A stretch of DNA of 37,364 nt from a virus (Duplodnaviria > Caudoviricetes): positions 1 to 37,364 of the IMG/VR virus record IMGVR_UViG_3300017783_000075, one strand, 5' to 3'. The notes beneath the pieces are model-generated. The model ran no database searches. It was not told where the DNA came from and saw only the letters and a program-made list of their open reading frames with translations. Both the position numbers and the translations under genes were made by a program. Every line of letters starts with the position of its first letter. Within the stretch, counting starts at the first letter, position 1. Of this stretch, positions 1-32,688 are shown one piece after another.

Positions 1-2829
1 GAAAGTCCACAAAGCATTGTGTATGACCATAGTGAGAAGAAGTTGGGTAGTGAGTTAATTACTGCATCAGTAAGCACAGGAAGTGGAATTACATCAAGTA
101 GTTATATTACTTATGATGATGGTAAAATGAATATTAATGGAAGTGGGCAAGATTTTTATATTACAATAAATAATACTGCTGACACATCAAGTACATCTTT
201 TAGATATAGATTAGTAGTTACTGTCGATTCATATACATCGGGTGGTATGAGCATGGCAGGAGGTAGTGCAGGATTTAATGCTTTTACAATCGGTGATTCA
301 TTTAATGATATTATTGTACCCGATTCTAATGGCGGTTCATTCCAATTAAGAGTAGTTAATTATGTAGGTGTTATAAGTAGCATATCTCTAAAGAAAATAG
401 AGATGGGCAACCACGCTTCTACAAAATTCTTTAGCACTATAGATGAAATAGAAGATGGTGCATTTGCTACTGCTACAAACGCAAGTACAACAGGAGCATA
501 TTGGACAACAGACGATGCTTGGAGCATAGGAAGTAGTGTTGCAACTTGTAATTTTAGTGGTTCAGCTAACAAAAGTATGAGTCAAGGTAGTAATAATGGA
601 AGCGTATCTGCTCATCCATTAACTGCTGGAAAAACATATAGGGTAACAGGAACTGTTGTAGTTACAGAATTAAACGGATATTTAAGTGTTGGTTCTTATG
701 GTTCTAATTTTACAACTGTACTCCCAAGCGATACTGCTGATGGTGCTACAGTTAATTTTGATGAAGAAATTCTTGCAAATACAGGACAAATTCAAATTAG
801 AACAGTTGGTTCTGGAGGTGCTAATAATTTTACATTAAATAATGTTACTTGTAAAGAAGTAGGAATATCCTCAACTGGCTTTACTACTGCTCAAAATGAA
901 CCAGTCATTCCGCAGATTCCATTGGTGAAAAGCAATGAAAAAATGGCAGTACCAAGTGATGCTTCTACTAATACTTATGTACATTTACCAGATGGATTAA
1001 CCGCAGGATTGACTGAAATAACAATATCTATGTGGTTTCAAAAAATAAAGTCTGGAAATTCATTCGTTACACTTTTTGCAGTAGATGGTGGTGGTACTTA
1101 TTTTAGAGACACAAGTAATAATAGAATTACTTGTCATATGCCTTTTGATAATGGTGGCAATCCTTTTACAAATTTTGAATTTCCAAATGATTTAGCACTT
1201 CATCATTATGTATTTACAGTTAAAAGTGGCAATCAAGAAGTATATAGAGATGGAGTTTTAGTACATAGCACTACTGTAACTACTACAACAATGTCTGATA
1301 ATATAAGAAGAATTGGAAATTATGCAAATTCACAAGATAATTCAATGGCAGATGAATTTGCAATTTTTAATAGACATTTTACTCAAGCAGAAGCACAAGA
1401 ACTATTCAACGATGGTCTCGCATATGATGCTACTACACACTCCAAGTCTGGAAATTTATTAGGCTACTGGCGTAACGATGGCGTAACTACATGGCAAGAT
1501 AGAAGAGGATGGAGTTATTTAAATTTTGATGGTACAGGAGATTTTGTACAAGCAAGTTTGTCGTCTAATACAGTAGGACAGACATATTCTTTTTGGTGGA
1601 ATACTACAAATACAGGAATTAATAATTGGATATTTGCACTAAAACAAGATTCTACTTATCGAGCAAGGTTTTGGCAAGACTATGCATATCAATTTAGAAT
1701 CGGTACTCAAGCTGATTCTAATTATGTTTATGTAGGAGCAAGTGGTAACTCTACTGGAGTATATAACAATGGTGCGTGGCATCATATATTAGTATATATA
1801 GATAACACTATCGGTAGCTCTAAAGTATATGCAAATGGAGTTGCTTTATCAATGGGTTCAGGAAATGGTAGCTCTTCTGTAGGAACATCTAACACGCTTA
1901 TTATAGGAAATAAAGCGGGTAGTATCTCTCAATTTGCGGTTTGGAGCGGTGATAAAACATCATCTGCATCTGGTATTTATGCTACAGGAGTTAATGGGAA
2001 TTTAACAAATGCTTATAGTACAGATTTAATTGGGTATTGGAAACTTAATACTGCAAGTACAGATGCTAACGCAATAAAAGATTTAGTTGGTACTAATCAT
2101 GGTACTGTAAATGGTAATCCTACACTTAACACAGGCAACGATGGTTCTGTACAAGGCACACCAGACTCAATTACAATTCGTGAGGGATTAACCTCTGGAA
2201 AAGATGGATTAGGATTTTCGTTAAGGAACGATGATAGTAATACTTTAAGACTTTCTCAAAAATTAGAACATTTAATAGTTCCATATACAAAAGCAATAAG
2301 TGCAACATCTATTAGCGATGCAATAACAGTTGAATGTTGGGTAAAGTTTCACGACCATCCAAGTGGATATAATGTTATAGCTTCAAATGCTACAGGTGGT
2401 GCTTGGTCAAATGGATGGTCTTTAGCTATGGTAAATAGTGAATTAAGATTTGCTATTAATAACTACAATGCGAATAAAGCATATACTACTATAAGTGATT
2501 TTACAAAATGGTATCATATAGTTGCTACTTATGACAGAAGTTTGTCATCAGATAATATTGCAATATATGTTGATTTAGTAAAAGGTACATCTGGTGATTA
2601 TACAACTGCGATTGCAGAAAGTAATAAAGATTTACATATTGGTTATTTAGATAGTGAAAATGTATCTGTAAAAGCACAAACTTGTTTAATAGATGAATTA
2701 AGAATTTATAACAGAGTATTAACTGGATTTAAAGCAAATGGTACTGCTGTTGCAGATACTGAAACAGTTGCATCTGGAGAAATAGCTAAAAATTATAAGC
2801 ATGGCAAAGGAAAGCATAAAAATGACTAA
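1..2829 (+). CDS. LamG/concanavalin A-like multi-domain fibre (receptor-binding) protein, 5'-truncated by the window edge
   Basis: Frame is open from base 1. At least three LamG-type repeats (TISMWF..HHYVFT..YRDG..DEFAIFNR; YLNFDGTGDFV..WHHI..YANG; TVECWVK..WYHIVATYD..IDELRIYNR). Probably the continuation of the ORF starting at 36804. Confidence 0.85.
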   Translation, partial: ESPQSIVYDHSEKKLGSELITASVSTGSGITSSSYITYDDGKMNINGSGQDFYITINNTADTSSTSFRYRLVVTVDSYTSGGMSMAGGSAGFNAFTIGDSFNDIIVPDSNGGSFQLRVVNYVGVISSISLKKIEMGNHASTKFFSTIDEIEDGAFATATNASTTGAYWTTDDAWSIGSSVATCNFSGSANKSMSQGSNNGSVSAHPLTAGKTYRVTGTVVVTELNGYLSVGSYGSNFTTVLPSDTADGATVNFDEEILANTGQIQIRTVGSGGANNFTLNNVTCKEVGISSTGFTTAQNEPVIPQIPLVKSNEKMAVPSDASTNTYVHLPDGLTAGLTEITISMWFQKIKSGNSFVTLFAVDGGGTYFRDTSNNRITCHMPFDNGGNPFTNFEFPNDLALHHYVFTVKSGNQEVYRDGVLVHSTTVTTTTMSDNIRRIGNYANSQDNSMADEFAIFNRHFTQAEAQELFNDGLAYDATTHSKSGNLLGYWRNDGVTTWQDRRGWSYLNFDGTGDFVQASLSSNTVGQTYSFWWNTTNTGINNWIFALKQDSTYRARFWQDYAYQFRIGTQADSNYVYVGASGNSTGVYNNGAWHHILVYIDNTIGSSKVYANGVALSMGSGNGSSSVGTSNTLIIGNKAGSISQFAVWSGDKTSSASGIYATGVNGNLTNAYSTDLIGYWKLNTASTDANAIKDLVGTNHGTVNGNPTLNTGNDGSVQGTPDSITIREGLTSGKDGLGFSLRNDDSNTLRLSQKLEHLIVPYTKAISATSISDAITVECWVKFHDHPSGYNVIASNATGGAWSNGWSLAMVNSELRFAINNYNANKAYTTISDFTKWYHIVATYDRSLSSDNIAIYVDLVKGTSGDYTTAIAESNKDLHIGYLDSENVSVKAQTCLIDELRIYNRVLTGFKANGTAVADTETVASGEIAKNYKHGKGKHKND

Positions 2830-3364
2830 TACATATTTAATATTAACCAAAGCAGTATATGAGGGTAAGCTACCAAGCAAACTCAAAACTGCGGATAAAT
2901 TGTCTTGGAATGAGTACACTTATAAAGATGTAGAAAAGACTGCTACACGATCTGTAGACAAATATGATTATTATCCAAGTGAAGATAACACGAAGGATGA
3001 AATAAAGGTTTATATGGATGATTGTGATGTAGATTATTCATCAAGCGACACCAAAGCAGAACTACTTGAAAAGCTCATGTCAGAGCCTCATTCTGTGCCT
3101 AAAAAAGATGAAGAGTATACGTATACAGAATCTGTAGTAGATAAAACCACATTACAAAACCCAAGTTGGCAAGAGTGTGCATTTAAGCAAGGCAAATTAG
3201 GCGCACCAAGATGGAATAAAGACAATACAAAGGTTCTTGTTAAATATGAGTTATCCATCGCTGATGGAACTCTAGACCAAGTTAAAGGAGTTAGTGGCAT
3301 TACTGCTTTATCTCACAGTGAGTGTTTAGGTGAAATGAAAAAGGATGAATGGTCTGGTGAATAA
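2822..3364 (+). CDS. Hypothetical virion-associated protein with an internal HeH/LEM/SAP-like helix-extension-helix motif
   Basis: Motif NTKDEIKVYMDDCDVDYSSSDTKAELLEKL. ATG at 2822 overlaps the upstream stop (ORF track starts it at 2801). Confidence 0.6.
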   Translation: MTNTYLILTKAVYEGKLPSKLKTADKLSWNEYTYKDVEKTATRSVDKYDYYPSEDNTKDEIKVYMDDCDVDYSSSDTKAELLEKLMSEPHSVPKKDEEYTYTESVVDKTTLQNPSWQECAFKQGKLGAPRWNKDNTKVLVKYELSIADGTLDQVKGVSGITALSHSECLGEMKKDEWSGE

Positions 3365-3848
3365 TAAGGGTAATTCACTTGCTGAGTTTGCAGTTACTAT
3401 GGCTATCATGGCTACTCTTGCAACTACTTCCGCTCCTGCTTTTAGTAGAATTGGTGAAGGTGCTAAAGCTAAACAAACTAAAGCTAATCTTGAAAAAATT
3501 GTTAAAGCATCTCAGATGTGGTATAATCAACAAATAGAAGTTAATGGTATGGGTAAATTCCCATCTCAGCCACATAGGACAGTTAGTGTAGGTGAAGTTA
3601 TTGATTACAATGGCAATCGTAGAATAGAAACAGATGAAATACTCGATGGTGTTTATGTACCTGTGTTTAGTGATACTAGCTTTCTACATTTGTTTGATAA
3701 TGATACAATTAAGTCACCTTATCAAGAAGGTAGATATTTATATGCTATCGTAGGTGGCTCTGGGACAGGAAATGCTATTGTGTCTCCTATCTTTGTAGTT
3801 GTAGATGAAGAAAACCCAGAAGACTTTCATAAATATTATAAGCCATGA
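3345..3848 (+). CDS. Type IV pilin/pseudopilin-like protein with class III (prepilin) signal peptide
   Basis: NNKG|NSLAEFAVTMAIMATLATTSAP: basic leader, G at -1, E at +5, hydrophobic helix, P at +22, then amphipathic helix AKAKQTKANLEKIVKASQMWY. Confidence 0.8.
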   Translation: MNGLVNNKGNSLAEFAVTMAIMATLATTSAPAFSRIGEGAKAKQTKANLEKIVKASQMWYNQQIEVNGMGKFPSQPHRTVSVGEVIDYNGNRRIETDEILDGVYVPVFSDTSFLHLFDNDTIKSPYQEGRYLYAIVGGSGTGNAIVSPIFVVVDEENPEDFHKYYKP

Positions 3849-4168
3849 GTGATGAGAAAACGTACAGATCATATGGGGTGGCAAAGATTGATGATAACTT
3901 TCGTGTTAGTCTTAACATTAAGTGGCTTGGGCAAATTATTGTGGGAGTTGCTATTATTGTGCTTGGCTACTTACGTATTGAGAATAGAATTAAAGAACTT
4001 GAGCGTAGAGTTCAACTATCTGATACCAGAATTGAAGAGCTTGTCAATAAACATATAGAAGAAGAAGAAGTTAAAATAACACATATGCAAGAACAACTAG
4101 AATGGTATCAAACAGAGCTAAACTTAAATCCCTTATCTTGGGGAAAGAAAAAGAAAAAAAGAAAGTAG
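3845..4168 (+). CDS. Single-TM coiled-coil membrane protein (lysis region)
   Basis: TM segment WLGQIIVGVAIIVLGYL followed by heptad coiled coil and basic C-terminus. ATGA overlap with upstream gene. Confidence 0.65.
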   Translation: MSDEKTYRSYGVAKIDDNFRVSLNIKWLGQIIVGVAIIVLGYLRIENRIKELERRVQLSDTRIEELVNKHIEEEEVKITHMQEQLEWYQTELNLNPLSWGKKKKKRK

Positions 4169-4235
4169 TCTTAACAGAGGATGACTTTAATCATAACTAT
4201 TTTATTAACAGAGAACTGCGGAGGGTACGATAGTA

Positions 4236-4553
4236 GTGGATTTTTTAGCAATTTATTCAGAAGCGGGTATGATAGGTGTCGTAGGGGCTATGTTCATGTT
4301 TATGGTTTATTCAATGAACAAAAGAGGAAACGAACAAGCAGAATCACTTCAGAATTTAAAAATAGAAAATAAGGGGCAAAGTGAAACACTTGAAAATATG
4401 GAAGGCATGGTTATTAAGCTTATTGGAAGATGGAATCAATCAGATGACAAGCTTGATAGAAAATTTGATGCACTTAATAAAGAAATAAATGATTTAGATA
4501 ATCAAGTCTCTGAAATCAAAGGCAGTTTATCTAGGGTAAATGGAAAGCACTAA
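4236..4553 (+). CDS. Holin-like N-terminal TM + coiled-coil protein
   Basis: GMIGVVGAMFMFMVY TM then coiled coil. Lies upstream of the endolysin. Confidence 0.55.
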   Translation: MDFLAIYSEAGMIGVVGAMFMFMVYSMNKRGNEQAESLQNLKIENKGQSETLENMEGMVIKLIGRWNQSDDKLDRKFDALNKEINDLDNQVSEIKGSLSRVNGKH

Positions 4554-4693
4554 TGGATAGTACAAAAGTAGCAATAGCAAGTATTAGTAATTATGGATTA
4601 TCATTAACAAGCGTTAGTCTAACCTTGCAGTGCATAGTGGCATTTCTTACAATAATTTACTTATTAATAAAAATAAAAAATACAGGAAAATAA
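4553..4693 (+). CDS. Small hydrophobic membrane protein (46 aa), possible holin
   Basis: Not in ORF track. MDSTKVAIASISNYGLSLTSVSLTLQCIVAFLTIIYLLIKIKNTGK; TAATG-coupled and fills the gap exactly. Confidence 0.6.
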   Translation: MDSTKVAIASISNYGLSLTSVSLTLQCIVAFLTIIYLLIKIKNTGK

Positions 4694-4694
4694 T

Positions 4695-4922
4695 ATGAAT
4701 TTTAAATCAATAATGCTATCAGTAGCAGAATCTCAAGCAGACCAGTTTAAAAATAAAGCAGTAGAATGGGTGCAGTCAGAAGAATTTCAAGATGAACTTG
4801 CTAGTAAAATAAATGCAAAAATTGACATACCTTTTGTCAGTGAAGATAAAGAACAGATTTTTTTTGAAAAATGTGTTGACCTAGTTGCTGATGTTATTGA
4901 AGGTTTATTTAAAGGGAAGTAA
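4695..4922 (+). CDS. Hypothetical protein
   Basis: 75-aa ORF in a tightly coupled operon (KINAKIDIPFVSEDKE motif). Confidence 0.65.
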   Translation: MNFKSIMLSVAESQADQFKNKAVEWVQSEEFQDELASKINAKIDIPFVSEDKEQIFFEKCVDLVADVIEGLFKGK

Positions 4923-5218
4923 TGCCTAGAAAAAGTAAAAGAGATCCTAGGTTAGCTAGATTTGGGCTTAGTGGTTACAACAAACCCAAAAGAACAAGAG
5001 GTCATAAAACTAAATCTCATGTAGTTCTAGCTAAAGTAGGTAGTAAGGTAAAACTAATACGCTTTGGTCAAAAAGGTGCTAGTACAGCAGGTAAACCTAA
5101 AGCAGGGGAGTCAGCAAGAATGAAGGCAAAACGTAAATCATTTAAAGCAAGGCATAGAAAGAATATAGCTAGAGGTAAGATGTCTGGAGCTTATTGGGCA
5201 AACAAGGTGAAGTGGTAA
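4922..5218 (+). CDS. Highly basic conserved phage protein
   Basis: K/R-rich with KLIRFGQKG...KRKSFKARH...SGAYWANKVKW, a pattern I recognise from phage/large-virus hypothetical proteins. TAATG-coupled. Confidence 0.7.
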   Translation: MPRKSKRDPRLARFGLSGYNKPKRTRGHKTKSHVVLAKVGSKVKLIRFGQKGASTAGKPKAGESARMKAKRKSFKARHRKNIARGKMSGAYWANKVKW

Positions 5219-5352
5219 TGGCTAAAAAAGTAAGTTGGTCTTTTGGAGGTAAAAGGTACTCTGGTACTTTAATCAGGGAGACTAAAACACATAAGTTCGC
5301 AAGAACTAAAAATGGAAAGATAAAGAAAATTAAAAAGAAAGGAAGAAAATAA
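5218..5352 (+). CDS. Small basic protein (44 aa)
   Basis: Not in ORF track. MAKKVSWSFGGKRYSGTLIRETKTHKFARTKNGKIKKIKKKGRK; TAATG overlap at both ends. Confidence 0.65.
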   Translation: MAKKVSWSFGGKRYSGTLIRETKTHKFARTKNGKIKKIKKKGRK

Positions 5353-5441
5353 TGCCTTACGGAAAGGGATCATACGGAAGTAAAAAAGGTAGACCACCTA
5401 AAAAAAAGAAAAAACTAACTAAAAAGAAAAAGAAAAAATAG
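5352..5441 (+). CDS. 29-aa lysine-rich peptide with AT-hook-like motif
   Basis: Not in ORF track. MPYGKGSYGSKKGRPPKKKKKLTKKKKKK; TAATG start overlap, TAGTG overlap with the endolysin. Confidence 0.6.
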   Translation: MPYGKGSYGSKKGRPPKKKKKLTKKKKKK

Positions 5442-5821
5442 TGTATAAGTTTGGTAAAAGGTCAAGAAAAAGACTTGAGGGCATTGAGCCTGAGTTAAGG
5501 TTTATTCTAAATGAACTTATTAAGATAATGGATGTTACTATTATTGAAGGGGTAAGGTCACAGGAAAGACAAGATGAGTTAGTTGCTAAAGGTGCTAGTA
5601 AGACGAAATATTCTAAGCATATTGATGGTAGGGCAGTAGACCTTGCCCCTTACCCTATTGACTGGGATGATAGAGACACATTTCATTATATGTGTGGAAT
5701 GATAAGAGGGATTGCTCATGTAATGAAGATACCAATTAGAGTTGGGTGTGATTGGGATTCTGATGGGCAAACTAAAGATAACAACTTTGATGACTTAGTT
5801 CATATGGAATTAAAAAGTTAA
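5441..5821 (+). CDS. Endolysin, peptidase M15 (L-Ala-D-Glu peptidase-like)
   Basis: IIEGVRSQERQ..SKHIDGRAVDL..D(LV)HMEL: SxHxxGxAxD Zn motif plus C-terminal HxE. Confidence 0.9.
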   Translation: MYKFGKRSRKRLEGIEPELRFILNELIKIMDVTIIEGVRSQERQDELVAKGASKTKYSKHIDGRAVDLAPYPIDWDDRDTFHYMCGMIRGIAHVMKIPIRVGCDWDSDGQTKDNNFDDLVHMELKS

Positions 5822-5838
5822 ATGTTTAACTTTTTGCA

Positions 5839-5867
5839 TTGCATTAAAGAGTATCAAATAGTAATAT
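5839..5867 (+). promoter_or_regulatory. Sigma70-like promoter for the neck/tail operon
   Basis: TTGCAT(5839-5844)-17 nt-TAATAT(5862-5867) in the intergenic gap, about 10 nt before ATG 5877. Confidence 0.5.
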
Positions 5868-5876
5868 AGAGGCACT

Positions 5877-6827
5877 ATGGCATATTGTACAAATAGAGAT
5901 TTAAAAGATGTATTTCCCTCAATAGATGAGTTTGACAGCAAAGAAGCACTATACGGATGGGTAGTTGAAAGTACTAACTTATATAGAGCAAATAATAGTG
6001 GTTTAGTTACTCAGTTATTTGCAAGTGGGCAAGACTTAGGTTCTGCTGAATCTAGTAGTGGGGCAGTAAATTCTAATGGCAAGTGGTTTTATGATTCATC
6101 TTTAGATGCTGTTTATTATTTTAATAGTGCCGTTAATCCTAATGATATATTGATGGAGTCAGGAGAGGACTGGTCAGCACTAACTGCAAGATACCTATCA
6201 AATGCTGAAAAATATCTTGATTCTAGGATAGATGGAAGATTACCTCGTAAACAATTCAAGGATAAAGATGGTAATTATGACTATATAATAGTAAGGACGA
6301 CAGCTTTAATAGCATCTTCTTTTCTTATTAGAGCAAGTGATCCCACATCTGAAATAGCAAATGCTTTATTTGAAGAAGCCGATAGAAACATTGCATCATT
6401 AAATGATGGTTCAACAAAACTATCTTGGCAAGTTACAGGAGACTCTAGTAAAGGGGTTATCAGACAAGTAGCAGTAAGTGGTAATGTAAACTTAGTAGAC
6501 ACTAGGGGGCATTATACTGGCATATACGACAGGGTGGGAGTAAAAATTACAACGGCAGGAGCTTTAGGAACTGCTAAATACTCAGTATGGAAAAGAGATT
6601 CTAACAACCTAGGTGCTGAGAGAATGAATAATGGTGTCACTGCTGATTATACAGAGATAATTAATGGGCAATATCAAGAACTTACATATGGAGTAACAGT
6701 GCGATTTTCAGGAGATACAGCGGATACAGCAACTTTAAATGATAAATGGGAAGTAGAGTTTTTTGGTAAGAATGAATCTGTAGATGATACAGGAATGCCT
6801 TACTCAATACGGATGACTCGTAGATGA
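5877..6827 (+). CDS. Head-tail adaptor/connector-like protein (Mu gp36-like core with extra domains)
   Basis: MAYCTxxDL N-terminus, A(EK)YLDSRI and TALIASSFLI helices. First gene of the tail operon. Confidence 0.55.
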   Translation: MAYCTNRDLKDVFPSIDEFDSKEALYGWVVESTNLYRANNSGLVTQLFASGQDLGSAESSSGAVNSNGKWFYDSSLDAVYYFNSAVNPNDILMESGEDWSALTARYLSNAEKYLDSRIDGRLPRKQFKDKDGNYDYIIVRTTALIASSFLIRASDPTSEIANALFEEADRNIASLNDGSTKLSWQVTGDSSKGVIRQVAVSGNVNLVDTRGHYTGIYDRVGVKITTAGALGTAKYSVWKRDSNNLGAERMNNGVTADYTEIINGQYQELTYGVTVRFSGDTADTATLNDKWEVEFFGKNESVDDTGMPYSIRMTRR

Positions 6828-27667: not shown

Positions 27668-28297
27668 ATGAGTGTTACATTACCAGTTAAATGGAAACCA
27701 GAAAAATCACTAGCTATTGATATGCTAGTCTCGTCACCTGAGACATCTATACAAGAAGTTGCAGATAAGGCTGGGGTTACGAAAGCTACTATCCATAACT
27801 GGCTTAAAGATCCTGAATTTGTAGAAATTTTTTATCAGAAATATATGGTTACTTTTGGTTCTAGATTGCCAACAGTATTAAATAGTATGGTAAGAGAAGC
27901 TGAGGCGGGGAATGTACAAGCGGGGAGATTAGTACTGGAACATTCTGGGAAACTTATTAAAAGAGTTGAAGTTAATAACCATAAAAGCCCCTTTGAAAAA
28001 TTTTTGAATACCCAAGTGCCTGAAGATGTTGATATATACGATGAGGTGGAGATACTCCCACAAAGACCTATAGTACCAGAAAAACCAGTAGTAATAACAC
28101 CTCAACAAGAAAAGCGAGAGTTAAAAAAGAATTTAAAAAAGAATGAGAAACGAAGAGAGGCTAGAAAGTGGAGGGCTAGAGCTGATGCCGTAGGTATTAG
28201 TAGACCAGAAAAAGGAAGACAAACACCTGCACAGCGTAAAGCATGGCAAGATAAAATTGAAAGAAAAGAAAAAGCCCTAGGTATCGAATCTTTTTAA
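27668..28297 (+). CDS. terS: Terminase small subunit-like HTH protein
   Basis: SIQEVADKAGVTKATIHNWLKDPEF HTH, then EAEAGNVQAGRLVLE oligomerisation-type helix and basic C-terminus. Confidence 0.65.
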   Translation: MSVTLPVKWKPEKSLAIDMLVSSPETSIQEVADKAGVTKATIHNWLKDPEFVEIFYQKYMVTFGSRLPTVLNSMVREAEAGNVQAGRLVLEHSGKLIKRVEVNNHKSPFEKFLNTQVPEDVDIYDEVEILPQRPIVPEKPVVITPQQEKRELKKNLKKNEKRREARKWRARADAVGISRPEKGRQTPAQRKAWQDKIERKEKALGIESF

Positions 28298-28423
28298 GAA
28301 TGTCTTTGTGTCGTAAGACTTACATTCTGGACAAACTTGTTCCCTATCAGCTCCAACGGCTAATACTTCCCATGTCCATCTACATCTAAGGCAGATACAA
28401 TTTAATACATTAAACTTATTCAT
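28277..28423 (-). CDS. Small Zn-ribbon protein (48 aa)
   Basis: Not in ORF track. CLRCRWTWE..CPECKS; ATGA-coupled to the upstream minus-strand gene. Confidence 0.55.
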   Translation of the reverse strand: MNKFNVLNCICLRCRWTWEVLAVGADREQVCPECKSYDTKTFLKRFDT

Positions 28424-28887
28424 ATAAATATACTATCATCTATTTCCATTGATTCAGGCACTAACTGACAGTAGCAGTTATCCTTGCAAAGACTCCAACC
28501 AGATCCTGGCATCCCTCGTTGTTCCCAGTTTTCCCAAGTATCAACCTCACCTGCTACACTTTGACAGTCGTCACAAATATTTTTAGATACTGCAATCCAT
28601 CTTAAGCCTTCCCCCATTTCTCCCGATCTGCGGAATGCTTGATTAATTCCTCCAACAACTCCTCGTTTAATTGAATTTCTGAGTTCTCCGAAGATTCTAC
28701 CATAGGACATAAAGTCTTGCTCAAGAACCCCAATAATTGATTGTTCATCAAGACCACTTCTTCTAAGCCTTTCAACTTGTTGTCTAATCCTTTGATTGAA
28801 AATTCTAGAGTCGTAAGACATTCCAGAAGCAATCTCAGTAAGTAATCTTCTATCTCTTTCATCTAGTTCAGTCCCTTCTTTTGCCAT
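28420..28887 (-). CDS. Minor head protein (MuF/SPP1 gp7-like C-terminal Cys domain)
   Basis: RWIAV..ICDDC..AGEV..PGSGWSLC..NCYCQLVP; downstream of portal. Confidence 0.65.
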   Translation of the reverse strand: MAKEGTELDERDRRLLTEIASGMSYDSRIFNQRIRQQVERLRRSGLDEQSIIGVLEQDFMSYGRIFGELRNSIKRGVVGGINQAFRRSGEMGEGLRWIAVSKNICDDCQSVAGEVDTWENWEQRGMPGSGWSLCKDNCYCQLVPESMEIDDSIFI

Positions 28888-28921
28888 AATCTACTCCTGA
28901 GTTTTTATATAATACAATAAT

Positions 28922-29344
28922 TTATTTTTTTAGTGCTTTTTTTACGCTTTTAATAAAGTTTTTTTGAATTTCTTTTTTATTTTTTATTGTAACAGAAATA
29001 AAAGGTCTTGCTTCTATTTTAATATTAGGAATCATAGATTTTTTATCAGTTGTAAACCCATCGTTATGCAGTTTTCCATAAGATAACATTTCTAAAGAAT
29101 CTTTATTTGTCTTTATGCTTTTGTATAAAGCACCAGATGCTTTTAAAGCTGGAGTTTGCCTTTGACCTCGTTTTTTTCTTATTTCTTTTGTTAGTGGAGA
29201 TAGTTTTCTTAATCCTCTGTCAATTTTTTGCTTAGAATCTTGCTCTGACTTAGTAGCATAAGCTGAAGATACTTCATCAAGTATTTCCCAAGTTTTACTT
29301 TGCAGTTTCTTAAAACTAAAGTTTTTTGTTATTTTTAATTCCAT
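28922..29344 (-). CDS. Virion morphogenesis protein (Mu gpG-like)
   Basis: LSPLT..RK..LKASGALYKSI..YGKLHNDG..IEARPFI. Confidence 0.7.
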   Translation of the reverse strand: MELKITKNFSFKKLQSKTWEILDEVSSAYATKSEQDSKQKIDRGLRKLSPLTKEIRKKRGQRQTPALKASGALYKSIKTNKDSLEMLSYGKLHNDGFTTDKKSMIPNIKIEARPFISVTIKNKKEIQKNFIKSVKKALKK

Positions 29345-29549
29345 CCCAAAACTCCTCTCCTAGTTCTTTTGCTTCTAGATACTTACTTAGATTGTCATAA
29401 ACACCTTGCTTTACTTGTTGTTCAGCCCACTTAGTAGGGTTTTCCATTACATCTTTTAAAGTCCCTGTAAAATTAATCTCCAGATTGTTGATCTTGTCTA
29501 GCTTCTTGACGGAACTGCGTAAATATTGACTGTTCTCCTTCTTGCTCAT
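29316..29549 (-). CDS. Hypothetical protein overlapping the portal 3' end
   Basis: MSKKENSQYL... with GGAG upstream (track start 29567). Confidence 0.5.
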   Translation of the reverse strand: MSKKENSQYLRSSVKKLDKINNLEINFTGTLKDVMENPTKWAEQQVKQGVYDNLSKYLEAKELGEEFWDGIKNNKKL

Positions 29550-30792
29550 TCGTACTCCTATTTTCATCTATAATTGATTGTGCTTGTGCTATCGTGAGGT
29601 CTTTGTTATCTCTAGCCATTATCTTAGCTCTAGTAATAAGATTGTTATTTATATCAAATTCATCTTTAAGAATCTGGTCTTGAACTGTTTTTGGATACTC
29701 AACTTCTTCAAAGTCAACTCCAAACTCTTCAGGCAGTGATATACCATTGTATTCAGCGATAACTCTTTCTACATCATAAAAGTCTTTTTCATACATTCTC
29801 CAAAGAGCAATATCATCATAGTAGTCTTCTTTTCTCTCCATATCTTTAATCATAAGGGAGATACCACTAGGGACTTCCCCACCAGACTCAGCCCAAGTAA
29901 TCCACAGGTGATTATTTGTAGCAACTAATTCCATTTGGAATTTGATATTATTAATAGCCTCATCTATATTGCCTTGAGGGCTTGTAATATTGTAAGCACC
30001 ATCTTCACCCATATCAAGAATAGTATTAGAGCCTGACCTTAACATGCTTTGGTCTGCATTTAAACCTGTAACCCAAGGTTGACCAAACATATTAAACCTC
30101 ATTCCTAGGTTCATTTCAGTCAAAGCAATATTAACTTGTTCGTTGCAATTAATAATGTCAGATGCTCCCTCTACAAAGAAAGAGTCTATCTGATCTTCCC
30201 TATGAGTAAATACAAAAGGTAGGATGCCATATGGATTAGGAGATTCAGAAATCATATTACCTTCTTCATCCATGATGCCATAATTATTCTTATCCCAATA
30301 CTCCCACTGTAACCCCTCTGTATTTGAAAGGTCTGATGTGCTATTTAATAATGGATAAATAATAGTACTAGGTTCAAATGGATTATCTTCAAAGTATGCT
30401 TCAAAATAATATATTGGTCTATAGTCAAAATAACCATCTCTCCAATGAACTCTATTTGCTACAGTCCCTAATAATCTAGTCATTCTTTCAGAATGTTTCA
30501 TGCGGACATTTTTTGTTTGGATAAGCTGTTGATACACTTCGCTATTATCGCCTGTTGTTCTTTTTGCCCCTAAACTATAAATTCTGCTAATTTTATTTAT
30601 AAATTTTCTAGTAAAATTAGTTAAACTAGGAGGTATTTCACTAAAAGCATCTCCATTAAAATAATTGTTAATGTATTGGTCTGTAGAAATTCCTGAATAG
30701 TAGTCAAGGTGTTTTCTAATTTCATTTCGCCTTTGGTGTGCCATCATCAACTTAGTTTCTATTAACTTATCTTTTATCATCTGGTTTATCAT
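29473..30792 (-). CDS. Portal protein (SPP1 gp6-like)
   Basis: DYYSG, NPYGILPFV, SGISL motifs; 439 aa directly downstream of terL. Confidence 0.85.
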   Translation of the reverse strand: MINQMIKDKLIETKLMMAHQRRNEIRKHLDYYSGISTDQYINNYFNGDAFSEIPPSLTNFTRKFINKISRIYSLGAKRTTGDNSEVYQQLIQTKNVRMKHSERMTRLLGTVANRVHWRDGYFDYRPIYYFEAYFEDNPFEPSTIIYPLLNSTSDLSNTEGLQWEYWDKNNYGIMDEEGNMISESPNPYGILPFVFTHREDQIDSFFVEGASDIINCNEQVNIALTEMNLGMRFNMFGQPWVTGLNADQSMLRSGSNTILDMGEDGAYNITSPQGNIDEAINNIKFQMELVATNNHLWITWAESGGEVPSGISLMIKDMERKEDYYDDIALWRMYEKDFYDVERVIAEYNGISLPEEFGVDFEEVEYPKTVQDQILKDEFDINNNLITRAKIMARDNKDLTIAQAQSIIDENRSTNEQEGEQSIFTQFRQEARQDQQSGD

Positions 30793-32102
30793 CTTTGTAT
30801 CCTTTTCATTTCTCTATTCCTCATTGGAAATCTATTTATAATAAAATACCTAAAAGCATCGTTTCCGTGATCATGGTATCCATCTTTAATTGGTTCTTCT
30901 TTAATTGGTTTACCCTCTTCGGACTCAGGGTATCTATACTCTTCAAAATCTTCTATCATCTCTTTACAGGAACTGTGGACATGCACTCTTCTTACTCCGT
31001 CAGCACTTTCAAAAAACCCCCTAGTGTAAGATACGCTGTTAACAATATTCCTACTATTTCTATCTTTAGTTGATAGCACTCTTATTCCACTTCTCCTAAA
31101 TATCTCCATGTCTCCTGCTCCGCTCTGACCTTGAACATTAGCACCTGCGGGATCACCATAGTAAGACATAACAGGGTAGCCCTTAACTTTAATCATCTTA
31201 ATTAGGTCTTCAGTTTTAATATTATTTTTATGAAGTATGGTGTCAAACACCCTTATATGCTCAAGCTCACCATCGTATTGTGTCTGTATAAATAAAACAG
31301 CAGGTTGCCTGTATCCAAAATCTATTGCACAGAATGTAGGCAGATTAGGATCATATGGATAATGCCCTACATCTAATTCTCTATTAAAATCCCAAACCTT
31401 TCCTTCAAATACAGAAAACTCTGCACCAAACTCTTGACCAAAAAGTTCTTTAGACATATTTCTTTTTCTTTCAATAATAGCAGGATCTTCTAGTCCTAAT
31501 GGAAATTCATGCTGATTAACCCAAGATGGTGAAGTGTGACTTTCCCACATAGGATCATCTCTTCCTAATTTAAACAAATCATATATCCAGTTTCTACCTT
31601 CTGGTGTAGTAATAAAAATAACCTTTCCTTTTCTACCTGCAACTGTAGGGGATAAATACATATCCCAAATCTTTTTATTCATCTTAGCAACCTCGTCAAT
31701 TACAAGTAGGTCAAGACCTTCTCCCACTAAACTTGATGGATTATCTGCTGACATTCCTTCTACAGTAGTTCCCCACTTAAAACGAATATACATGTCTTTC
31801 TCAGATGCCTTATCAACATCTTCGGGATGCCCAATAACCATCCTTTGCCATATCTCACGGAAAATAAGCCTAGCTTTCTTGTAAGACATTCCAACAACCC
31901 AAATTCTTTTATCAGGTTGAGATGCTACATAGGTAGCTTCCATAGCACTAGCCCAAGTTTTACCAAATCTTCTCCCGCATACTACAACTTGAAATCTAGC
32001 ATCTTGTTTTTCGGGGAAGTGTAGTGGCACTTGTCCGTTATGTGGCTTGTATTCTAAGTAATCAAACCATTTTTTCTTAAATTCGTAATTTTTTTCTTGC
32101 AT
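30789..32102 (-). CDS. terL: Terminase large subunit
   Basis: Walker A CGRRFGKT, Walker B LVIDE, TTPEG, RNase H-like IDFG..GDPAG..DHGNDAFRY. Confidence 0.95.
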   Translation of the reverse strand: MQEKNYEFKKKWFDYLEYKPHNGQVPLHFPEKQDARFQVVVCGRRFGKTWASAMEATYVASQPDKRIWVVGMSYKKARLIFREIWQRMVIGHPEDVDKASEKDMYIRFKWGTTVEGMSADNPSSLVGEGLDLLVIDEVAKMNKKIWDMYLSPTVAGRKGKVIFITTPEGRNWIYDLFKLGRDDPMWESHTSPSWVNQHEFPLGLEDPAIIERKRNMSKELFGQEFGAEFSVFEGKVWDFNRELDVGHYPYDPNLPTFCAIDFGYRQPAVLFIQTQYDGELEHIRVFDTILHKNNIKTEDLIKMIKVKGYPVMSYYGDPAGANVQGQSGAGDMEIFRRSGIRVLSTKDRNSRNIVNSVSYTRGFFESADGVRRVHVHSSCKEMIEDFEEYRYPESEEGKPIKEEPIKDGYHDHGNDAFRYFIINRFPMRNREMKRIQR

Positions 32103-32116
32103 TAGATTACTTTGAT

Positions 32117-32145
32117 AACTTACATTATACCATATCTTAATGCAA
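32117..32145 (-). promoter_or_regulatory. Promoter candidate for the terL-portal operon
   Basis: Minus strand TTGCAT-17 nt-TAAGTT, plus an extended -10 TGGTATAAT within the spacer. Confidence 0.45.
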
Positions 32146-32190
32146 GAGTAATTCTTGTGTTTTAAATACTAACTCACTGAAGAGGTAAAA

Positions 32191-32688
32191 ATGTCAGAAG
32201 AAAAGACCATCGAGCCAGATGTAAAACAGGAAAACGACACTAAAGTCGAAAACAATGTACCAATAACAAGGTTGAATGAAGTGATTTCAGAAAGAAATAC
32301 TCTTCGTGAAGAAATTCAAGCTTTTAAAGAAAGTCAGGATGATCAAAAAAGAGCAAAGCTAAAAGAAGAAGAAAAATGGCAAGAGTTAAATACAGAACTT
32401 GTCAAAGAACTTGAAACCTACAAACCTTATAAAGATAAGTGGGATTCAATGGATAAAAAACTTCGGGAAGATGCTTTAGCTAGATTGCCTGAATCTAAAC
32501 GAGAAAAATTCTCCAATGTGGACACTCAAACATTGTTAAGTATTGTTGATGAGTTTACTGTAGCAAAAGAAAACCCACCTGATAGGCAGGGAACTGTGCC
32601 AACAGATAAACTCGGAAAAGTCACTGATATGAGCATGGATGAGAAGAAACGTAATTGGGGGCAAATATTAGAATCTTATAGGAGATAA
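32191..32688 (+). CDS. Capsid scaffolding protein
   Basis: Acidic coiled-coil (VPITRLNEVISERN..EEEKWQEL) immediately upstream of the major capsid gene. Confidence 0.75.
   Translation: MSEEKTIEPDVKQENDTKVENNVPITRLNEVISERNTLREEIQAFKESQDDQKRAKLKEEEKWQELNTELVKELETYKPYKDKWDSMDKKLREDALARLPESKREKFSNVDTQTLLSIVDEFTVAKENPPDRQGTVPTDKLGKVTDMSMDEKKRNWGQILESYRR

Follow-up and report, generated by a model that had tools for sequence, protein, structure and literature searches.

Why should a tailed phage carry a gene for a type IV pilin directly upstream of its putative lysis genes? The window, i.e. the whole stretch of 37,364 nt that was analysed (IMG/VR record IMGVR_UViG_3300017783_000075), was identified as tailed phage DNA by profile searches, which found terminase, capsid, primase-helicase, M15 endolysin and LamG fibre-like genes. 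The same searches of its ORFs found no integrase, repressor or pilus machinery, in agreement with an earlier note on this DNA, which had described a pilin gene and no apparatus for pilus assembly. Repeats of at least 15 nt were not found at the window ends, and hence the completeness of the phage genome is not established. The genes around the pilin gene, and the segments within it, are the following:

1..2829, plus strand: LamG-domain fibre-like virion protein, 5′ end open, assigned by domain matches
2801..3364, plus strand: upstream gene of 187 aa, function not assigned, replaced by other genes in many relatives
3345..3848, plus strand: phage type IV pilin gene, 167 aa, predicted mature length 158 aa
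3345..3371, plus strand: class III leader ending in K-G, overlapping the upstream gene at its end, with GTG 3357 as a possible other start
3372..3437, plus strand: predicted membrane stalk, N+1 to P+22, with E+5
3603..3638, plus strand: Dx[DN]x[DN]RRI[ED]xx[ED] loop, predicted to bind calcium, in the small-phage form only
3714..3743, plus strand: SPYQxGxYxY segment, start of the head beta-sheet, common to the host family
3845..4168, plus strand: membrane and coiled-coil protein of 107 aa, first gene of the putative lysis cassette
4236..4553, plus strand: membrane and coiled-coil protein of 105 aa with a weak Rz-like spanin match (E 5.5e-5)
4553..4693, plus strand: hydrophobic holin-like peptide of 46 aa, kept in relatives, function inferred
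5441..5821, plus strand: M15-type peptidase endolysin (phrog_465, E 6.6e-37)

The pilin ORF shared 20 nt with ORF 2801-3364 upstream and 4 nt with ORF 3845-4168 downstream, which verified that the gene overlaps both neighbours and is set in the late operon. The location between fibre and lysis genes that had been given for it was correct on the lysis side, but the LamG gene lies one gene further upstream. The lysis region also contained small, very basic Lys/Arg-rich proteins (4922-5218 and 5194-5352), and clusters of such proteins (c20, c26) were swapped among relatives. At 27668-32688 the genes for the terminase large subunit, a probable portal and a neck protein were on the minus strand and formed an inverted packaging block, flanked by plus-strand small terminase and capsid genes.

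The product of ORF 3345-3848 is a type IV pilin, and this identification was borne out by full-length homology, by profile matches and by structural matches of the predicted model. Standard pilin profiles are escaped by this family: the N_methyl score (PF07963) was 13.8 bits and thus below the curated cut-off of 21.2, a search with TIGR02532 gave no match, and by the canonical type IVa definition the protein falls outside, with Asn instead of Phe or another hydrophobic residue at +1 and with the curated score missed. P0139, a pilin with the signal G/FTLTEL (the slash marks the cleavage site) that passes TIGR02532, was aligned with the phage pilin from end to end with 38% identity (E 1e-35), and the alignment set G/N upon G/F. 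With the profile of the host family described below, PDB chains of Geobacter pilins, MshA and PilA were matched at E values between 1e-7 and 1e-4. The AlphaFold model consisted of a long helix (residues 11-67) and a small beta-sheet head, with a pLDDT of 81 overall and of 53-65 in the stalk. The best 19 structural matches among 48,161 chains compared were pilins or pseudopilins throughout (Z 4.2-6.0); the top match had a Z of 6.0 and an rmsd of 3.0 over 79 aligned residues, all Z values being below 8. Foldseek comparison of the model with the PDB and with viral models yielded nothing at E<=0.001, and the neighbours in the ESM Atlas, viral clusters and one planctomycete N_methyl cluster (0.94-0.95), are a lead only. 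Among 50,697 GenBank phage records there was no match for the pilin, nor for the tail tube, and a PHROGs search with the pilin was also without a match.

The leader ended in the motif K8-G9/N10-S-L-A-E14, which places Glu at +5 and P31 at +22. The class III signal KG/NSLAE with E+5 and P+22 that had been read from the sequence was thus present and was conserved in homologues: G9 and N10 were found in 88 of 90 full-length homologues (two gaps), E14 in 88 of 90 and P31 in all 90, and all 64 distinct phage copies had K/R/S-G before the cleavage site. The loop sequence DYNGNRRIETDE, which had been read as EF-hand-like, and a segment of the type SPYxxGxYxY (SPYQEGRYLY) were likewise present in the ORF. 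The hydrophobic helix of about 20 residues also exists, but its hydrophobicity is only moderate (Kyte-Doolittle 19-residue maximum of 1.45; host family median 1.26). The true start may be the GTG at 3357 instead of the ATG at 3345, because 14 of 80 relatives offered only GTG or TTG as starts within 10 codons. A longer leader with CxCx3CxC before the cleavage site was observed in 11 of the 80 pilins (L008, L010-L014, L058, L060, L062, L075, L080). An assembly chimera was ruled out, as one contig of the independent run X3 covered positions 3074-3876 with zero mismatches and the gene was carried by 80 IMG/VR loci (80 kept of 94 relatives).

The codon usage of the pilin gene resembled that of ordinary late genes, and a sigma-70 scan revealed 32 sites versus 30.0 expected, i.e., no signal above chance. 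A phage sigma-54 promoter was rejected: the look-alike (9/33 pilin-carrying versus 2/14 pilin-free sequences) sits in the codons of the upstream gene and is missing from the window. RNA contigs of X18 and X19 covered only about 4175-6000, so that the pilin gene was outside and they are uninformative on its expression either way.

The closest cellular relatives of the phage pilin, with 31-39% identity, were GxSLxEF pilins of Marinimicrobia (SAR406). Profile-profile comparison of the phage and host families gave a probability of 100%, and both have the signal, the stalk, FPxQ, SPYQxG and the C-terminal strands in common. As judged from sequence comparison, the phage pilin is a descendant of the Marinimicrobia GxSLxEF pilins. 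A likeness to pilins of this group, and with it this host, had been suggested in the earlier note; the nearest cellular homologues agree with it, and so does, besides the pilin, a match to a host tRNA gene (see below). A scan of species genomes revealed 29 cellular loci, of which 10 were titled Marinimicrobia or Neomarinimicrobiota and two had other names; L082, which was counted as a host locus, was near-identical to a phage copy and is probably viral. Strong matches (E<1e-20) were present in 26 of 401 genomes of the phylum, and within the genomes searched the family was restricted to part of one order.

In this order the GxSLxEF pilins open the pilin cluster of a pilus locus. Where the loci were long enough, the genes were arranged in the order response regulator, PilD, PilB (which has a c-di-GMP motif), sigma-54 activator and PilC; between one and five GxSLxEF pilin genes came next, then canonical pilin genes, and after these an ExeA-like ATPase gene and a secretin gene. 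PilT and PilM were over the cut-off in four of five such genomes, where they lie at a second locus. With its ExeA-like ATPase and its ATPase bearing a c-di-GMP motif, the layout resembles that of MSHA pilus loci. Tandem pilin amplification was observed in L085, L089, L101 and L104, with up to five GxSLxEF and eight canonical copies, the amplified GxSLxEF copies mostly having a sigma-54 site each, and in L099 the pilin was doubled as an inverted pair. The residue at +1 was Asn, Gln, Ser or Ala as a rule in 66 distinct host copies. The Asn that had been flagged as atypical is therefore unusual when compared with the canonical Phe, but it is no quirk of the phage. PilD may tolerate residues other than Phe at +1, for which the searches gave no confirmation, and the host prepilin peptidase presumably does so, because its own pilins have Asn, Gln, Ser or Ala there. 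A sigma-54 site was located about 75-125 nt upstream of 41 of 61 host GxSLxEF copies versus 0 of 108 other pilins (background 5%), and due to these individual sites the GxSLxEF pilins are likely to be abundant subunits. The canonical pilin just downstream had a similar codon bias and stronger ribosome-binding sites (20/27 versus 18/59), and it is also a candidate for the main subunit.

Host assignment was based on tRNA segments and on phage contigs. In the pilin-carrying relative G440, which has a backbone different from that of the window, a segment of 62 nt about 100 nt from the integrase gene agreed at every position with tRNA-Ala(TGC) of G002, whose genome itself encodes GxSLxEF pilins. 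This was the best match among 233 genomes of the order, and an identical match was not found among 970 plasmid records. For the tRNA-Pro half in G444 and G445 the best match was 96%. The partial tRNA copies beside the integrases (L287:878-938 in G440, Ala TGC; L289:759-807 in G444, Pro TGG; L290 in G445) are probable attachment sites. Related phage contigs were detected in three genomes of the host order, G349 (primase-helicase 68-70%), G175 and G004; they were short and stand-alone, and with no control order this link is weak. Integrated prophages with host flanks were not found. Taken together, the nucleotide and protein matches make Marinimicrobia with GxSLxEF pilins the likely hosts, and this is not proven, because tRNAs are conserved and the search covered the genomes of one order and plasmids. 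Hardly any viruses have so far been assigned to Marinimicrobia, a common group of marine bacteria; as far as could be found, host and phage are both uncultured. As the GxSLxEF family is confined to part of one order in the genomes searched and occurs in several unrelated phage groups, it could be used to assign hundreds of viral contigs to a host.

Of 80 loci as listed, 76 had the pilin gene immediately 5′ of the putative lysis genes; two of the remaining four ended at a contig edge, and two were hidden by ORF pruning. Upstream of it, several different modules were found in relatives. The gene is optional: among 80 loci found via the downstream gene, 38 had the pilin, 34 lacked it and eight were too short. 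A tree of the next two genes required five gains or losses of the pilin, at least four of them forced, and three close relatives (terminase 88-89%) were without it. The pilins were 79-94% identical across phage groups with different terminase, portal and capsid families (38 fetched records and the window, groups with less than about 30% of gene clusters in common), and their identity was not correlated with that of either of the following two genes (Spearman 0.08 and 0.06). Both results indicate that the pilin is selected on its own. A match between pilin and fibre type was not seen, as the pilin identity was 0.85 within and 0.85 between classes of the upstream fibre, and sisters without the pilin had the same fibre types. 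No obligate partner gene of the pilin was found among 39 genomes; the best co-occurrence was that of a metallophosphoesterase (19/21 versus 4/18), which follows backbone and completeness, and in this count G449 was scored as pilin-free, yet it has a partial pilin at its contig edge. A tyrosine integrase was present in four of 29 pilin-carrying and in one of 17 other records. Most of the pilin carriers, 25 of which have no such integrase, are therefore probably lytic phages, which have little time.

The slot of the pilin is not cleanly empty in pilin-free phages; usually a small lipoprotein gene (30-43 or 70-93 aa) is found there. This gene was present in 37 of 71 sequences with the pilin and in 31 of 38 without it. 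In relatives it adjoins the 107-aa gene on the 5′ side (L116, L129, L042:10492-10764), and it is absent from the window. The tiny form has about 11 mature residues, e.g., CDxGWSxxGYEV. Some pilin-free phages have a multi-pass membrane protein of 97 aa in the slot instead (L118:2098-2391 and relatives), with a weak, sub-threshold match to heliorhodopsin.

For a comparison of the phage and host forms, 118 relatives in a protein collection and 94 in IMG/VR (80 kept) were available. The short phage form was a single clade (support 100/100) on a long branch, and the tree did not pin down its host sister group. The mature length was 158 residues in 63 of 64 distinct phage copies. The host GxSLxEF pilins have 194-243 mature residues and variable heads. 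Of the first 45 mature residues, i.e., the stalk, 33 were identical to the closest host copies, whereas the head was shorter than that of the host and the variable host loops were gone. A loop Dx[DN]x[DN]RRI[ED]xx[ED] was found in 64 of 64 phage copies and in none of 66 host copies, and this pattern arose in 0.04% of shuffles. An EF-hand loop has its ligands at positions 1, 3, 5, 9 and 12 and Gly at position 6. Positions 1, 3, 5 and 12 of the phage loop (D87, N/D89, N/D91 and E/D98) were acidic or Asn in 90 of 90 homologues and the intervening positions varied; position 6 is occupied by Arg, and an entering helix is absent from the model. The loop is a candidate for calcium binding. The median dN/dS of the phage pilin was 0.13 (1720 pairs) compared to 0.11 for the endolysin, and purifying selection extended over the whole head (pN/pS 0.17-0.30). 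At a stalk identity of 85-95%, the heads were 80% identical among phages, but only 50% among host orthologues.

A scan of IMG/VR with the host profile yielded 168 relatives, and the 80 that were kept were mostly host-length pilins of large phages (in records of as much as 132 kb), without the acidic loop. In 64 of these 80 another pilin followed directly, and N_methyl was found in 10 of 10 such neighbours tested. The flanking genes were typical of large marine phages, and PilB was not over the cut-off in any of 15 partial large-phage records. A quick tree forced at least three separate origins. The cassettes (L441-L520, e.g., L445:3965-5869, L449:3920-5906 and L478:3950-6003) consist of a host-length GxSLxEF pilin and one to three canonical pilins, mostly preceded by an intergenic gap without a sigma-54 site. 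By eye, the N-terminus of the protein encoded by L506:1648-2328 and relatives (cluster q7) looks similar to the c-di-GMP-binding motif in PilB of the hosts; a Pfam search of this protein gave no match at E<=0.001. As the pilin was captured once by small phages and at least three times by large phages, the pilus is a likely point of conflict between phages and their hosts.

What could the pilin of the small phages do? The best explanation, to which we give about an even chance, is that the protein is synthesised late, joins the host pilus, and masks or stalls it as a receptor for phages. It draws on sequence, homology, context, selection and distribution as described above, and on a predicted fold. 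The pilin would be translated from a late polycistronic message via the overlap with the upstream gene, and the host PilD, whose neighbouring pilins bear the same signal, would cut it at G/N. The host-like stalk would carry it into the pilus, and because the variable loops of the host head, to which phages would attach, are missing from the short, fixed phage head, mixed or stalled pili might adsorb fewer virions. The likely gain would be that progeny are not lost on the pili of the dying cell and that late superinfection is blocked. A precedent is P-FimU, which enters pili and blocks adsorption (PMC12952977). On the other hand, there is no sign that the pilus is the receptor, and LamG domains, which are lectin-like, abound in the fibres; pilin identity is independent of the fibre class, and sisters without the pilin have the same fibre types; P-FimU genes are diverse and have promoters of their own, unlike this uniform gene, for which the promoter signal did not exceed chance; and late timing leaves little time for pilus turnover. 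Re-skinning of the pilus had also been suggested; as a move in an arms race it is disfavoured in view of the uniform phage head, which does not follow the fibre type. Alternatively, the pilin could be the main subunit of an adhesive, calcium-stabilised filament that the phage builds on the host machine, so that the cell sticks to particles or hosts before the burst. Purifying selection on the whole head, the fixed length and the phage-specific calcium-loop-like motif are in line with such a filament, as are the multi-pilin cassettes from the same host locus in large phages, and the SNJ2 pilins build their own filaments on the host machine (PMC12426801). It seems unlikely, however, as the missing promoter, the overlapping and often non-ATG starts and the late-gene codon usage argue against the output of a main subunit, and the probably lytic majority (25/29 records without tyrosine integrase) is short of time. 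A wider version, which we consider quite unlikely, is that small and large phages each took over the Marinimicrobia pilus, the large ones with whole pilin cassettes and the small ones with a single shared, re-engineered and calcium-clamped pilin. Late in infection this pilin would build or cap filaments, so that the dying cell becomes sticky and collects fresh hosts or particles and no longer soaks up virions.

The pilin might instead stay in the inner membrane as a decoy that occupies PilD or the PilC platform and stops piliation; the stalk is indeed its most host-like part (33/45 identical), and headless phage pilins exist for which such an action was proposed (PMC12952977). A conserved head with an invariant loop would be superfluous for a pure decoy, and this reading appears improbable to us. 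A function in the timing or support of the membrane proteins of the lysis cassette, with no remaining relation to pili, would fit the position just 5′ of the cassette (76/80 loci as listed) and the lower frequency of the same-slot lipoprotein (absent in 34/71 sequences with the pilin versus 7/38 without it, the sequences not being independent). About half of the sister cassettes lack the pilin, the pilin sequence does not track the cassette genes, and G-1, E+5 and P+22 are conserved, and thus a lysis accessory is very improbable. Hardly to be expected is a secretion system instead of a surface pilus as the product of the host locus, with a phage pseudopilin that blocks or redirects secretion. 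The host ATPase and platform proteins scored alike on the PilB/GspE and PilC/GspF models, all below the cut-off, PilT and PilM are at a second locus, and GspG-type chains were among the top structural matches; but tandem, individually promoted, head-variable pilins, with one to five GxSLxEF copies and up to eight of the next family per locus, fit an exposed filament, and the presumably MSHA-like ATPase layout also speaks for a pilus.

Phage-encoded pilins as such are known, and the idea of a phage pilin that enters the host pilus is therefore less new than first judged (PMC12952977; PMC12426801). In the literature searched, which excluded the supplements of virome catalogues and of bioRxiv preprints, no paper on the GxSLxEF family or on pilins of Marinimicrobia phages was found; 'pilin' and 'pilus' were absent from the passages of PMC4611503 that were searched, and 'marine' and 'Marini' from the searched part of the supplement of the P-FimU paper (PMC12952977). 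The family, the host, the design of the head and the late, lysis-coupled setting were not found in print.

P-FimU of F10-like Pseudomonas prophages enters pili and blocks adsorption (Sztanko et al., PMC12952977). Like P-FimU, the pilin of the window is encoded by a lone gene among late phage genes, optional for replication and without machinery, and both are about 30% identical to a host pilin. P-FimU copies a minor tip pilin, is expressed by the prophage from its own promoter, has extra loops and is diverse, whereas the window pilin copies a sigma-54-promoted, head-variable family, lacks a promoter signal, and occurs mostly in integrase-free phages; its head is shorter and uniform and bears an acidic loop that is new. 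Homology and profile searches showed that it is not derived from FimU. PilA-like genes are present in Xylella prophages (P-PilA) and in virulent Vibrio, Aeromonas, Synechococcus and Pseudomonas phages (PMC12952977); these, too, are full-length phage pilins, some of them in lytic or marine phages, with functions that are only proposed, but they belong to a different pilin family and a different host. PilA1 and PilA2 of the haloarchaeal provirus SNJ2 form filaments on the host machine (PMC12426801). They resemble the window pilin as virus-encoded pilins that depend on a host assembly machine and as a case of repeated capture from hosts, but they are archaeal, proviral and highly expressed and form filaments of their own, so that the cassettes of the large phages are closer to them than the gene of the window. 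Zip, which binds PilZ, and T5 Llp, which binds FhuA, follow a logic of progeny protection and exclusion (10.1101/2024.03.05.583538; 10.64898/2026.03.26.714494). The proposed purpose is the same, i.e., to keep progeny and rivals off the infected cell, although neither of the two is a pilin. In contrast to P-FimU, a uniform, late and lysis-coupled pilin would serve the protection of progeny and not the defence of a prophage.
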